A DNA stretch of 64,000 bases from Terriglobus sp. (GTDB lineage Bacteria > Acidobacteriota > Terriglobia > Terriglobales > Acidobacteriaceae). The stretch lies in the NCBI RefSeq assembly GCF_965201105.1, contig NZ_OZ241741.1:2577605-2641604 (forward strand), written 5' to 3'. The notes under the pieces are model-generated. The model searched no databases. It saw nothing but the letters and a program-made list of their open reading frames with translations, and was not told the origin of the DNA. How positions within the stretch are numbered: the stretch's first letter is position 1; each line of letters opens with the position of its first letter. A program made the translations under genes and the position numbers. Below are positions 59,016-63,209 of this stretch, piece by piece.

Positions 59016-60221
59016 TCAATTCTTGGACGGATCGAATTCATTCGCGCCGGCCATCGCAACACCGACCGGCGTGAACGTGTGCAGCACGCGAACGGTGCTG
59101 CCCTGCTCCGCGATTACCTCGGGCAATCGCTTGTAGCAGTGCGGCGACTCGTCCAAACCGCCGCCGCGCAGCACCACGTTCGCCTCGCGCAACCAACTTT
59201 GCATCATCTGCGGCTTCACCAGGCCCTCGCGTTTGCACACACCGGTCTTGCGATCAAAGACACCCGCCGCCTGCTTGCGGGCCATGACCCGGCCTGCGCC
59301 GTGTACGGTGGAGAACATGGCCGCGCGCTGTGCTTCGCGTGTGACATCGTCCACAGTTTCGGGCTTAACGCCCTCCAGGATGACCGACACCTCACCCATG
59401 GTGCCGCCGACAAACCCACGCTGCCCGGGAAAGGCCGGCGTGGCACCCTTGCGGCAGACCCAGAGCAGCTTGCCGTCGTGCTCTTCCTGCCAGGCGAAGT
59501 TGTGGTGGTTGTGCACCTGCTCAACCACGGGTGCGCCGAGCAGACGCGCGACACGGTCACAGACCCAGTCGCGCCCGGCGTACGCGTATGCGCCGCCCAG
59601 TTGCATGGCGGTGATGTACTGCGCGCCAAGGTCGCTGGAAACATCGAGCCAGACCGGATCGACCATCATACAGTCCTTCGCCTCAGCGGCCTTCAGGAAC
59701 CATGTGGCAATGCCATGACCCAGACCGCGCGAACCGAAGTGAACACCAACCCACACGCGATCCTGCTCGTCGGTGAAGAGGTCGACGTAGTGGTTGCCGC
59801 TACCGATGGTTCCAAGCTGCGCTTCGGCCTTGCGCTTCAGCGGAGCCGCTGCTTCCGTGTTCCAGCCGGCGTGACCGTCGCGCTCGAAAAGCGGGTGCGC
59901 ATTCTCCTCATTGTTCTTGCGGCCAACGCCAAACGACAACGTATTCCAGATGTCGTCCATGATGCGGTGGATGTTGGCGCGCAGTTCCGTGCCGGGCATA
60001 TCGAGACGCACCGCCTTGTTCCCACAGGCGATGTCGAAGCCGACCGCCGTCGGCGAAATGCGATCCTGCGCCGCGATCACCCCGCCGATGGGTACGCCAT
60101 AGCCAAGATGGCCATCGGCCATCAGCGCGAAGCGATCCGCACTGCGGGCGCAGACCTTTGCCTGCTCCAGCGTGTTGTCCTCGTGCGTGCCCCAAACGGG
60201 AATGTTGTCGATGTATTGCAT
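59016..60221 (-). CDS. rtcB: RtcB family RNA 3'-phosphate ligase
   Basis: ...ALMADGHLGYGVPIGGV..., DIACG, GSGNHYVDLF and HNHH match the RtcB metal/GTP-site motifs. Confidence 0.9.
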   Translation of the reverse strand: MQYIDNIPVWGTHEDNTLEQAKVCARSADRFALMADGHLGYGVPIGGVIAAQDRISPTAVGFDIACGNKAVRLDMPGTELRANIHRIMDDIWNTLSFGVGRKNNEENAHPLFERDGHAGWNTEAAAPLKRKAEAQLGTIGSGNHYVDLFTDEQDRVWVGVHFGSRGLGHGIATWFLKAAEAKDCMMVDPVWLDVSSDLGAQYITAMQLGGAYAYAGRDWVCDRVARLLGAPVVEQVHNHHNFAWQEEHDGKLLWVCRKGATPAFPGQRGFVGGTMGEVSVILEGVKPETVDDVTREAQRAAMFSTVHGAGRVMARKQAAGVFDRKTGVCKREGLVKPQMMQSWLREANVVLRGGGLDESPHCYKRLPEVIAEQGSTVRVLHTFTPVGVAMAGANEFDPSKN

Positions 60222-60302
60222 TGCTCGTGTTCCTTTCTGGCCGCACGCATTTGCGCGTGCGTACCGGGTTGGGTTGGTCCGTCGGCGCTCATCGCGTCCG
60301 GA

Positions 60303-60338
60303 GCAAAAGAAAGAGCCCGGGCTGTAGCCCGGGCTCTT
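60303..60338 (-). terminator. Rho-independent terminator of tsf
   Basis: The minus strand reads AAGAGCCCGGGC-TACA-GCCCGGGCTCTT followed by TCTTTTG, 25 nt after the tsf stop. Confidence 0.75.
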
Positions 60339-60362
60339 GGATTGGTCGTTAGAGGACGAGGC

Positions 60363-61034
60363 TTATGCCTGGGCCTCCTCGGCCGGAGCTTCGGGGGTTT
60401 TGATCTGGGCGACGGTGGCGTTCGGGTCACCGATCTTGAACCGGGCGAAACGGCGAACAGAGATGTTCTCGCCGAGCTTGCCGACCTTGGTTGCAATGAC
60501 CTGGGCCACTGTCTGCGACTGTTCCTTGATGAACGGCTGGTCGAGCAGGCACACCTCTTCGAAGTACTTGCCCATCTTGCCTTCCAGCATCTTCTCGATG
60601 ATGTTAGCGGGCTTGCCGCTGGCGGCCGCCTGGGCGCGGTAGACTTCCTTTTCCTTGTCGATGTCGGCCTGCGTGACTTCCTCGCGGCTGACGTAGCGCG
60701 GATCGGCGGCGGCGATGTGCATCGAGATGTCGCGCAGAAGCTCCTGGAAGTCCTCGGTGCGGGCGACAAAGTCGGATTCGCAGTTCAGCTCGAGCAGGAC
60801 GCCGATCTTGCCGCCGGCGTGAATGTAGGTGCCAACCGCGCCTTCATTCGTGGAGCGCGACGCCTTCTTGGCAGCGGACGCCATGCCGCGCTTGCGGAGG
60901 ACAACGAAGGCTTCCTCCATGTTGCCCTTGGTTTCTTGCAGTGCTTTGAGGCAGTCGCCCATGGGCGCGCCACTCTTTTCACGCAGCTCCTTTACGAGCT
61001 TTGCGTCGATCTTGGTTGCTTCTGCTGTTGCCAT
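60363..61034 (-). CDS. tsf: Translation elongation factor Ts (short form)
   Basis: LVKELREKSGAPMGDCLKAL (UBA-like N-terminus), ...EGAVGTYIHAGGKIGVLLELNCESDFVART.... 223 aa. Confidence 0.92.
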   Translation of the reverse strand: MATAEATKIDAKLVKELREKSGAPMGDCLKALQETKGNMEEAFVVLRKRGMASAAKKASRSTNEGAVGTYIHAGGKIGVLLELNCESDFVARTEDFQELLRDISMHIAAADPRYVSREEVTQADIDKEKEVYRAQAAASGKPANIIEKMLEGKMGKYFEEVCLLDQPFIKEQSQTVAQVIATKVGKLGENISVRRFARFKIGDPNATVAQIKTPEAPAEEAQA

Positions 61035-61038
61035 GTCT

Positions 61039-61553
61039 TTACACCTTTCCGTTAATCACTAAGAGGCTCTCGATCCTCGCCTCTGAAATTTTCCACGCTG
61101 CCGGTATCTCTTCCAATTGCCCCGGAGCTGTTTTCGAGCGGCTTGTCCACTGGTGACGCACGTACAAAATGGAATCGCCTCTTCCTCCGGATGTCTGCCG
61201 TAGTCTCGCCGCAACTTCTAAAGGTGTGGCGAGATATATCCTCGGCACTACATCGTCCGGAGCGTCAGCGAACTGCACAAAACAGAACACTGTCTTAGAG
61301 CCGTGTCGCGAAAACCACGTATCAATCGCGCCGTGATAATCCGCTTTCCTTTCCTCAGAAAGCTTTGTGTTAGTCCCCAACTTCCATCTTGGCTTCCTTT
61401 GACAGTCCCTTTAAGAAGGAGATCTCCACGCGCGACGATCAGATCGTACTCAGGTTGATTGGCGCCATACTGCACTGACACGTCGAATCCTAGACGGGCA
61501 AACTGGGCAGCGGCAAAATCCTCAGCCGCTACGGCACAATTTCTAGAGTTCAT
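61039..61553 (-). pseudogene. Low-GC nuclease-like ORF split over two frames (frameshifted or recoded) between rpsB and tsf
   Basis: Frame A (61553-61248) starts MNSRNCAVAAEDFAAAQFARLGFDVSVQYGANQPEYDLIVARGDLLLKGTVKGS..., which resembles the core of a PD-(D/E)xK / Hjc-like fold. Frame B (open to 61039) has no ATG or GTG start and reads on ...ADYHGAIDTWFSRHGSKTVFCFVQF.... The frames switch near the run AGGAAAGGAAAG around 61340-61352. About 50% G+C. Confidence 0.5.
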
Positions 61554-61567
61554 TACTATTCCTACTA

Positions 61568-61608
61568 CACACAAAAGCGTGGTCGCCAAAGCAGAGGCGG
61601 CCACGCTG
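61568..61608 (-). terminator. Hairpin plus U-tract after rpsB (terminator/attenuator)
   Basis: The minus strand reads AGCGTGGCCGCC-TCTGCTTT-GGCGACCACGCT followed by TTTTGTGTGT, 22 nt after the rpsB stop. Confidence 0.6.
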
Positions 61609-61629
61609 GTGTAAACGTCTGCTGCCTGA

Positions 61630-62577
61630 CTAGGCGGTTGCTTCCGCCGTGGCAGCTTCGGGCTCGACCTCGGACTCAGCCACCGTGCCGGTCGAGGGCA
61701 CGATTGGCTTGATGCCGCCGCCGAGCGCCGCCTCGAGATCGACCGTCTCTTCCTCGGCCTGCTCCTGCTGCGTGGTCGCAAACGGGTTCGACTCCTGGAC
61801 CTCGCCGCCCTCTTCGTCTTCCAAACCGACGAAGTGTGACTCGGTTTGTATCGGGGTCACATCGGCATATTCGTTCGCGATCGACTTGTCGCCGATCATC
61901 TGAACACCCTCGAACGCCGAATCGGCGATTTTGGTGGTGAACAGGCGAATGGCGCGAAGCGCGTCGTCGTTGCCGGGAATCACGTAATCGACCACGGTCG
62001 GATCGCAATTCGTATCGACCACGGCGACGACCGGGATGCCGAGCTTCCGGGCCTCGGAAACGGCGATGGCTTCGTTGTTCGAGTCAACGACAAAGATCGC
62101 GTCCGGCAGGCGACGCATGTTCTTGATGCCGGCCAGGTTCGTGTTCAGGTGCTTGCGCTCGCGCTCAAGCTTGATCACTTCCTTCTTTGTCATCAGGTCA
62201 AAGCGACCGTCCACAGCCATCTCATCGAGCTCGGCCAAGCGCTTGACCGACTTCTGGCAGGTGACCCAATTGGTCAGCAAGCCGCCGAGCCAGCGGGAGT
62301 TGATGTACGGCATACCCGCGCGATTGGCCTCTTCGGCGACTGCGTCCTGCGCCTGACGCTTGGTGCCGACAAACAGTATGGTCTTGCCGGTGGAGGTCAG
62401 GTCCGTGACAAACTTCGACGCTTCCTTGAACATCTTCAGCGTCTTCTGCAGGTCGATGATGTAAATGCCGTTGCGCTCGCCGAAGATGTACTCCTTCATC
62501 TTCGGGTTCCAACGCTTGGTCTGGTGGCCGAAGTGAACGCCGGCTTCCAGCAACTCCTTCATTGTGATCGATGCCAT
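61630..62577 (-). CDS. rpsB: 30S ribosomal protein S2 (with acidic C-terminal extension)
   Basis: [27 protein letters not shown].... 315 aa, with an extra Glu/Ala/Thr-rich tail. Confidence 0.95.
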
Positions 62578-62734
62578 TGCGGCTCCTTTTGTGCGGCATC
62601 CTGACGGATCAGGTCAGGATTAGTCCCGTTCGTCTGGGAGATTGAACCCCTAGAGTTTGATACTGTGCAGCGGCTGTCATGCCGTCGAGCCCACCGCAAT
62701 GGTTTCGATCGCTTCTGAGCGCTCGTGCCGCACA

Positions 62735-62800
62735 GAAGCGGATCCTTCGTTTCGCTCAGGATGACACCCGTGTAAATGGATGAGCATCCTGAGCGGAGAG
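62735..62800. repeat. Inverted pair of family A repeat arms
   Basis: AGAAGCGGATCCTTCGTTTCGCTCAGGATGAC (rc of family A), then GAGCATCCTGAGCGGAGAG. CGCTCAGGATG and CATCCTGAGCG form an 11-bp inverted repeat about 20 nt apart. Confidence 0.7.
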
Positions 62801-62813
62801 ACACAGCAGGCGA

Positions 62814-63209
62814 CTAGCGCTTGGAGAACTGGAAGCGCTTACGGGCGCCCTTCTGACCGTACTTCTTACGCTCCTTGATGCGGGCGTCGCGGGTCAGCAG
62901 GCCGTCGGCTTTCAGGGTCTTGCGCAGCTCCGGGTTGAACTCGAGCAGGGCGCGGGCAATGCCCATCTTGACCGCGTCGGACTGGGCAGTGACGCCGCCG
63001 CCGCGCACGGTCGTGATTACGTCGAACTCACCGGTGACGCCAGCCGTCTCCAGGGTCTTGCGGGCGGCGGCGCGCTGCTGCTCCGTGACAAAATAAACGT
63101 TGAGTTCCTTGGTGTTGACGGTGAAATTGCCGCTGCCGGGGCGCAGAAACACGCGCGCGATTGCCGACTTGCGACGGCCCGTTCCGTAGTACTGAACCTG
63201 ATCTGCCAT
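62814..63209 (-). CDS. rpsI: 30S ribosomal protein S9
   Basis: ATG at 63209. [22 protein letters not shown]...[17 protein letters not shown]. Confidence 0.95.

Follow-up and report, generated by a model that had tools for sequence, protein, structure and literature searches.

What occupies the spacer between rpsB and tsf, the genes for ribosomal protein S2 and EF-Ts, is the question raised by the stretch of Terriglobus DNA analysed here (64,000 nt of contig NZ_OZ241741.1, positions 2,577,605 to 2,641,604; hereafter the window, whose own positions serve as coordinates throughout). We consider it likely that the spacer holds the pseudogene of a horizontally mobile cassette consisting of a single open reading frame (ORF) for a nuclease of ~170 aa with a PD-(D/E)xK fold, in other words an accessory gene in decay. 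A first-pass annotation, made from the sequence alone, had noticed a low-G+C, nuclease-like ORF split between two frames at this position, and had read it as either a decaying selfish gene or one expressed by programmed frameshifting. Its factual elements all proved correct save for the strand, which it left unstated and which is minus for rpsB, the nuclease ORF and tsf alike. The spacer measures 595 nt (61629–61035), and G+C content over 61000–61600 falls to 0.505–0.54, compared with 0.58–0.67 (~0.62) in the flanks (200-nt windows). The features of the locus, in the order in which they are transcribed, are:

61630–62577, minus strand: rpsB (ribosomal protein S2, 315 aa), the upstream flank; an ORF with 98.7% identity to the Ribosomal_S2 gene of metagenome contig L001
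61567–61607, minus strand: native attenuator-like rpsB–tsf hairpin plus UUUUGUGUGU, outside the insert; from its fold and from homologous hairpins in relatives
61348–61553, minus strand: 5' part of the nuclease pseudogene (frame A, codons 1–67 plus 2 nt), with an E11...D37...T50-V-K52 core and its own AGGA at 61563–61560
61341–61358, minus strand: frameshift site CTGAGGAAAGGAAAGCGG, the meeting point of frames A and B; from DNA and protein alignments
61248–61250, minus strand: TAG ending the shifted frame A
61039–61347, minus strand: 3' part of the nuclease pseudogene (frame B, codons 69–171 plus TAA)
61042–61050, minus strand: GGAAAGGTG, judged from its sequence to be the probable ribosome-binding site of tsf, contained in the final codons of the nuclease ORF
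60363–61034, minus strand: tsf (EF-Ts, 223 aa), the downstream flank; an ORF, with EF_TS genes also downstream of the nuclease orthologues in L164 and L171

Frame A opens with an ATG at 61553 behind its AGGA, begins MNSRNCAVAAEDFAAAQFARLGFDVSV...KGTVKGS (in a longer form MNSRNCAVAAEDFAAAQFARLGFDVSVQYGANQPEYDLIVARGDLLLKGTVKGS...) and runs to the TAG at 61250–61248. Frame B carries ...ADYHGAIDTWFSRHG...IYLATPLEVAARL... (also given as ADYHGAIDTWFSRHGSKTVFCFVQF) and stops with a TAA at 61041–61039, 4 nt before the tsf ATG, just as the first-pass annotation had described, with GGAAAGGTG inside its last codons. Where the two frames meet, the window has GG (61349–61348) and the sister contigs L001 and L002 have GGG, identifying a 1-nt deletion in the DNA alignment: L001 reads AAAGGGAAAG against AAAGGAAAG in the window, and its frame is continuous at that point. 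L001 shares the rplM-rpsI-rpsB-X-tsf gene order with the window and its insert has ~95% nucleotide identity to the window insert; L002 is identical to L001 over their overlap. L001 carries a lesion of its own, codon 120 being TAA instead of the CAG of the window, and because this stop codon arose independently, selection on the nuclease gene has demonstrably been relaxed in the clade that unites the window and L001. In addition to the deletion, the window has the replacements A12D, S50T and E132V at sites whose conservation across 118 homologues is 98%, 100% and 99%, with L001 retaining the consensus at all three; by the structural model described below, A12D adjoins the predicted catalytic Glu and S50T falls on a predicted active-site position. 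When changes were polarised with four outgroups, 5 nonsynonymous and 5 synonymous changes fell on the window branch, and 2 nonsynonymous changes, the stop codon and 6 synonymous changes on the L001 branch, although these counts are small. Judged by its sequence, the window copy is a pseudogene, marked by a disabling deletion and by lost constraint at invariant sites, and the decaying gene proposed at first pass is borne out.

The protein restored by joining the two frames (171 aa) found matches in 2,435 protein clusters, E-values reaching 1e-83 and coverage being 96–100% of its length, and the ORF is therefore not a product of chance. Listed family members are mostly 157–226 aa long, and the best 120 cover 84–100% of the query, except for the prematurely stopped sister protein P0007 at 70%. 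In a 53-sequence alignment 36 positions are invariant, among them E11, D37 and K52 of a family motif E11...D37...S50-x-K52. An E...D...xVK core with Thr in place of an acidic residue had been reported at first pass; the core stands, but the Thr is no family trait, as the acidic position of (D/E)xK is occupied by Ser in 118 of 118 homologues and by Thr in the window only. Candidate residues that may compensate for the missing acidic residue are the invariant E11, D56, Q95 or E132/133.

An AlphaFold2 (AF2) model of the intact orthologue P0003 was obtained with high confidence (predicted local distance difference test, pLDDT, 91.7; predicted template modelling score, pTM, 0.88), comprising a helix (residues 3–20), three strands (24–27, 38–42 and 45–54), a second helix (74–84) and a further strand (89–95). 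In the model helix 1 bears E11, strand 3 bears K52, and D37 sits where strand 2 begins, which are the canonical catalytic positions. Its top matches in the PDB, found with Foldseek, were all PD-(D/E)xK nucleases, led by 2OST, the homing endonuclease I-Ssp6803I (E 7e-5, template modelling score (TM) 0.53/0.59), followed by SPARDA nuclease domains, archaeal Hjc, RecU and YraN; matches among viral structures were to PD-(D/E)xK and resolvase-like proteins. The family is thus confidently predicted to have a PD-(D/E)xK nuclease fold, in agreement with the PD-(D/E)xK or Hjc-like core suspected from the letters alone, and we infer that the intact protein would be a Mg2+-dependent DNA endonuclease acting in trans.

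Sequence profiles recognise the family faintly. Against PF11645 (PDDEXK_5) the repaired window protein scored 15.7 bits, below the gathering threshold of 26.1, and its homologues scored 16.9–24.7 bits, likewise sub-threshold and over model positions ~1–55 of 138 only. A profile search of PDB sequences returned YraN/UPF0102 as its sole match (E = 0.02), and homologues bear the JGI label 'Holliday junction resolvase-like predicted endonuclease'. No match was found in NCBIfam at E ≤ 10, nor any family in PADLOC-DB v2 at E ≤ 1 with four members searched; PHROGs returned only phrog_5018, whose label gives no function, for the N-terminus alone, and six NCBI clusters are without names. No informative domain fusions were found: longer homologues show the same weak PF11645 signal, one of them together with a PDDEXK_1 domain. 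The pseudogene belongs to an undescribed family that has no curated model, within a well-known superfamily.

Orthologues of the nuclease gene lie directly upstream of tsf in L001, L002, L006, L163, L164, L167, L168, L169, L170 and L171, with rpsB upstream wherever the contig extends that far. In at least seven other Terriglobales-like contigs the orthologue is an uninterrupted single frame, the intact slot ORFs being P0001 (L163), P0002 (L164), P0003 (L167), P0004 (L168), P0005 (L169 and L170), P0010 (L171) and that of the Terriglobales metagenome-assembled genome locus L006. By comparison, the gene was present in none of 80 metagenome loci picked only by EF-Ts similarity (76–88% identity), 68 of which include both rpsB and tsf. 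Because these 68 relatives have both flanks without the nuclease gene, the insert is foreign to the spacer, by the comparison among relatives that had been suggested at first pass. Empty spacers are ~70–140 nt long and consist of the hairpin and T-run followed by 45–60 nt of tsf leader. The insert comprises a ribosome-binding site and an ORF and nothing else, placed between the hairpin T-run and the tsf ribosome-binding site; no flanking repeats were found around it and no nuclease relics in the empty spacers, and the boundaries are clean. Among the empty sites, the spacer shows little conservation near the point of insertion.

Other elements occupy the same spacer elsewhere. A different ORF of ~87 aa was observed in nuclease-less L118 (~2090–2400), L127 (~400–680) and L147 (~2190–2450), encoding an N-terminal transmembrane helix and then a coiled coil (MTN(V/I)QLYFAIG...LARLEERLAR), with sub-threshold Pfam matches only; in L118 it is apparently frame-split. 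Many spacers (L084, L087, L092, L102, L111, L115, L163 at 121–165, and others) contain palindromes resembling repetitive extragenic palindromic (REP) sequences (GGGCACGGCTTTAGCCGTGCC, translating as 'GHGFSRAV') besides the terminator-like hairpin. Because three lineages host the other small ORF and many carry REP-like hairpins, the rpsB–tsf spacer seems to be a recurrent landing site, or general hotspot, for small accessory genes in Terriglobales.

The distribution and divergence of the cassette both bear on how it came to occupy this slot. Insert-bearing hosts were monophyletic in none of 200 bootstraps on an EF-Ts tree, and presence and absence of the insert are polymorphic at one precise site among close relatives: EF-Ts of occupied L164 is 97.6% identical to that of empty L084, as is that of occupied L171 to empty L135 (97.6%), compared with 80–87% mutual identity among the occupied hosts. 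Between the window and L001, synonymous divergence (dS) is 0.17 in the insert, 0.61 in rpsB, 0.60 in tsf and 0.38 in rplM, with synonymous differences at 18 of 120 sites in the insert versus 86 of 205 in rpsB (Fisher p = 3e-7). The block of low divergence starts at ~61640, takes in the hairpin and reaches ~60950, within the 5' end of tsf; identity to L001 is 91–98% from the hairpin through the insert to about nucleotide 90 of tsf, and 80–90% in most of rpsB and the rest of tsf, a mosaic suggestive of a recombination tract with the cassette at its centre. Other occupied pairs match this tsf dS (0.55–0.62), yet their nuclease dS is saturated. As nuclease dS ranges from 0.17 to saturation at a tsf dS of ~0.6, the age of the cassette is decoupled from that of its flanks in both directions and, given also the scatter of its carriers on the EF-Ts tree, we conclude that the cassette moves horizontally into the slot. 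The G+C content of the nuclease gene is drawn toward ~0.5 whatever that of the host.

The hairpin and T-run that follow rpsB, noted at first pass, are real, with a stem at 61607–61576 just 3' of the rpsB stop (11 pairs, one mismatch) followed by UUUUGUGUGU and a minimum free energy of −27.3 kcal/mol (z −1.8); its U-tract is too U-poor to pass a simple terminator scan. The empty site L085 has a hairpin (AGAGCGTGG...CCACGCTCTTTGTGTGTG) homologous to the one in the window (AGCGTGGCC...ACCACGCTTTTGTGTGT), and the homologous hairpin (AGCGTGG...CCACGCT+TTTG) occurs in empty L085 and L120 and in occupied L006 and L171. Because empty-site relatives carry it, the hairpin is a native rpsB–tsf element and not a piece of the insert, and a role as part of the insert or as its target was ruled out. 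Across the family, the nuclease genes have no more upstream secondary structure than the remaining genes of their loci (median z −0.09 versus −0.19, p = 0.89). In the rpsB–tsf operon of E. coli, tsf is transcribed via read-through from the rpsB promoter (bioRxiv 10.1101/262964). By analogy, tsf in the window is probably still transcribed from the rpsB promoter by polymerase that passes the hairpin, since no sigma-70-like promoter for tsf was detected in the insert or anywhere else in 60300–62900; the dependence of tsf on read-through proposed at first pass is thus reasonable. Intact alleles end the nuclease ORF 4–30 nt upstream of tsf; in the window, the TAG of frame A leaves ~213 nt untranslated ahead of the tsf ATG, and the remnant is best read as non-functional DNA that adds ~520 nt to the tsf leader. 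The 64-kb window contains no second copy of the nuclease gene, and a search for structured RNA with Rfam gave only two sub-threshold small RNA (sRNA) matches, both outside the insert. Downstream of tsf, a strong terminator-like hairpin (60338–60311, 12 pairs) is followed by rtcB (401 aa), the two spanning 59016–60338 on the minus strand; rtcB stands in place of the widely conserved pyrH-frr, and EF-Ts is short at 223 aa.

Beyond this slot, the family is rare and widespread, with 286 matches in 185,579 species genomes spanning many phyla, one archaeal contig and one plasmid. Homologues 51–67% identical to the repaired window protein lie at sites unrelated to rpsB–tsf in 77 of 80 genome loci. 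When 615 flanking ORFs from 82 loci (the 80 genome loci plus L001 and L002) were clustered, no conserved neighbour emerged except HsdR/HsdM in 5–7 Clostridia loci. Counted across loci and not per locus, HsdR was a neighbour in 5 of 75 upstream and HsdM in 4 of 74 downstream positions, and five loci appear to have the nuclease gene flanked by hsdR and hsdM of a type I restriction–modification operon; Cas12b, DNA methyltransferases, GIY-YIG, IS110 and H-NS also occur, and most neighbours are unrelated metabolic genes. By raw count, an immediate neighbour is HsdR, HsdM, a DNA methyltransferase, Cas12b or GIY-YIG in about a dozen of 75 loci. Two upstream neighbours across the loci are H-NS-like; H-NS-like genes are typical of acquired islands. 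Cultured carriers include Janthinobacterium fluminis hw3, Desulfosporosinus lacus DSM 15449, Cupriavidus necator EM36 and Paraburkholderia sp. Tr-20389, and intact homologues were observed in isolates of Janthinobacterium, Caballeronia, Cupriavidus and Paraburkholderia (L021, L038, L051, L055 and L063), including one Cupriavidus plasmid.

Under the explanation that we prefer, a mobile nuclease cassette now decaying in this genome, the intact gene would owe its transcription to polymerase reading through the weak rpsB hairpin and its translation to a ribosome-binding site of its own, and tsf would retain a ribosome-binding site inside or just after the 3' end of the nuclease ORF. Homologous recombination within the highly conserved flanks, rpsB and tsf, would carry the cassette from one lineage to another, and the cassette would be lost or decay when unselected. 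Because homologues 50–67% identical to the window protein occupy many unrelated sites, including type I restriction–modification operons, their placement leads us to think an accessory cargo gene of the defence type more probable than a homing enzyme with site specificity; a 'selfish' nature of the gene is plausible but unproven. Several points weigh against this explanation. It is built on sequence and predicted structure, the occupied loci are mostly short metagenome contigs, and the host tree is a neighbour-joining tree from a single protein alignment of ~207 columns. No homologues were found by tblastn in 50,697 phage and 72,556 plasmid records, and a defence or mobile-element label would be drawn from gene context and patchiness, with PADLOC offering no match. 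The nucleases resident in the slot form a weak clade (68% bootstrap for a core of six, 59% with P0010). Finally, dN/dS between the window and L001 nucleases is low at 0.12, and an indel of one base in a short run of G might in principle reflect misassembly.

The last two of these points are those on which an intact gene would depend, its frameshift being an error of sequencing or assembly, and the lesion is indeed a single missing G of GGG. We judge this very improbable: A12D, S50T and E132V would remain, at 98–100% conserved sites where the sister keeps the consensus, the sister lineage has a stop codon of its own, and two or three G in succession do not make a homopolymer of the typically error-prone sort. 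With the copy taken as a pseudogene, the still-low dN/dS implies that inactivation must be recent. The second proposal of the first-pass annotation, programmed −1 frameshifting, would have tRNA-Lys slip on A_AAG (61347–61344). A slip from AAG (61346–61344) to AAA (61347–61345) restores the family junction ...RKGK|ADYH... exactly, and an AGGA/GAGG purine run lies just upstream, but the junction has no canonical X_XXY_YYZ heptamer, no frameshift exists in the slot orthologues, all of them single-frame, or in any of the 118 homologues, the 95%-identical sister has an in-frame GGG, and the product would keep the three substitutions at invariant sites, including active-site Ser50. As the frameshift is not conserved in orthologues, we rejected programmed frameshifting and give it next to no credence. 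A spontaneous, low-level slip on A_AAG could yield traces of a full-length but mutated protein.

The weak slot clade is what speaks for one ancient insertion in an ancestor of these Terriglobales, followed by vertical descent and many precise losses with no horizontal movement. We regard this history as improbable, as it would have to accommodate nuclease dS values from 0.17 to saturated at the same tsf dS (~0.6), carriers scattered among empty hosts with 96–98% identical EF-Ts, empty sites without remnants, and an L006 nuclease that is not reliably sister to the others, remaining unplaced with 0.5% and 32% bootstrap. Another rival reading is a free-standing homing endonuclease gene in the degenerate stage of its homing cycle. 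The intact enzyme would cut the DNA of relatives that lack the cassette, in their empty rpsB–tsf region or at some conserved position within either gene, and repair of the break would copy the cassette, together with short co-converted flanks, into exactly this slot, the gene decaying after fixation as in the window and L001. Among solved structures the nearest is a PD-(D/E)xK homing endonuclease, I-Ssp6803I; the insertion is an ORF alone between two highly conserved genes, its occupancy differs between near-identical hosts, the low-divergence block from ~61640 to ~60950 covers the insert and short flanks, the insert is younger than those flanks, two inactivations are independent, and the genealogy of the element is decoupled from that of its hosts in the dS comparisons. 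Free-standing genes with co-conversion are, moreover, well known in T4-like phages (PMC2988022, PMC2790892). However, close homologues share no common site or target gene: those 50–67% identical lie at more than 70 unrelated sites with no common neighbour, which is hard to square with long-site specificity, and empty sites have little spacer sequence in common about the point of insertion. Other small ORFs in the same slot of other lineages point to a general hotspot, the phage and plasmid records lack homologues, and recombination mediated by the flanks alone accounts for the mosaic. That one sub-lineage of a chromosomal, free-standing PD-(D/E)xK homing endonuclease homes into the rpsB–tsf spacer of Terriglobales through invasion, fixation, decay and loss, with the window and its sister as two independently degenerated stages, is therefore possible but, in our estimation, unlikely.

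For this genome, the locus is a dead accessory gene that needs only a pseudogene annotation, and its interest lies in the population-level pattern at the slot more than in the window copy. A compact, highly conserved family moves as a bare ORF, repeatedly into one precise rpsB–tsf slot of soil acidobacteria, and occupied, empty and decayed alleles are all at hand for comparison. The slot thereby offers a natural system in which to ask whether small PD-(D/E)xK nucleases are chromosomal homing elements or hotspot defence cargo, and how an essential operon copes with 0.5 kb of DNA inserted between its attenuator and tsf, with cultured carriers of homologues making the family experimentally accessible. 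If homing were true, this would be the first such cycle documented within an essential bacterial translation operon.

Among known systems, the best structural match is the cyanobacterial homing endonuclease I-Ssp6803I (PDB 2OST; PF11645), a small protein like those of the window family, with weak N-terminal similarity to them (15.7–24.7 bits). I-Ssp6803I is encoded by invasive DNA (PMC3384342, PMC3424549), and the window family is patchily distributed. In contrast, I-Ssp6803I lies inside a group I intron of a tRNA gene, whereas the window gene is free-standing in an intergenic spacer; sequence identity is 12–16%, the Pfam match covers 53 of 138 model positions below 26.1 bits, and the family differs in its extra C-terminal beta-rich extension (residues ~126–170) and in S-x-K for the usual (D/E)-x-K. 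Hjc, RecU and YraN/UPF0102 share with the family a minimal alpha-beta-beta-beta-alpha-beta core in which helix 1 bears Glu, Asp sits where strand 2 begins and strand 3 carries x-K, but their TM on the query is only 0.35–0.41, with a profile E-value of 0.02 for YraN, and they are vertically inherited housekeeping genes, unlike this rare, patchy family of variable contexts. The absence of an acidic residue from strand 3, with S50-V-K52 in the family, recalls restriction enzymes of the Cfr10I/NgoMIV type and their PD...S-x-K active-site variant, although no sequence relationship to the family is detectable; in Cfr10I the Glu has migrated to another element, giving a PD-XXK-E motif, and such variants can be active (PMC3424549).

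In genomic behaviour, the seg and mob genes of T4-like phages are similar, being ORF-only insertions between conserved genes, polymorphic, accompanied by flank co-conversion and often defunct (PMC2988022, PMC2790892). These, however, encode GIY-YIG or HNH enzymes in phage genomes, whereas here a PD-(D/E)xK protein is found in a bacterial chromosome and at many unrelated sites. PD-T4-1, PD-T7-1 and others (Vassallo 2022), single-gene PD-(D/E)xK proteins of phage defence, are listed under PF11645 (PMC10952713). The window family differs from such defence proteins in having no PADLOC match (E ≤ 1) and mostly ordinary metabolic genes as neighbours, but resembles them as stand-alone nuclease domains that are mobile and found in variable hotspots, and some of its homologues lie beside restriction–modification genes, Cas12b and methyltransferases. 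In Clostridia, homologues stand next to type I restriction–modification genes in L050 (2641–3084), L057 (1847–2275), L065 (556–999), L071 (4058–4501) and L079 (3014–3442); in L050, L057 and L071 the homologue is flanked, across gaps of ~20–70 nt, by a large ORF upstream and another ORF downstream, all on one strand, an arrangement that recalls the latent nucleases, PrrC among them, embedded in type I systems.

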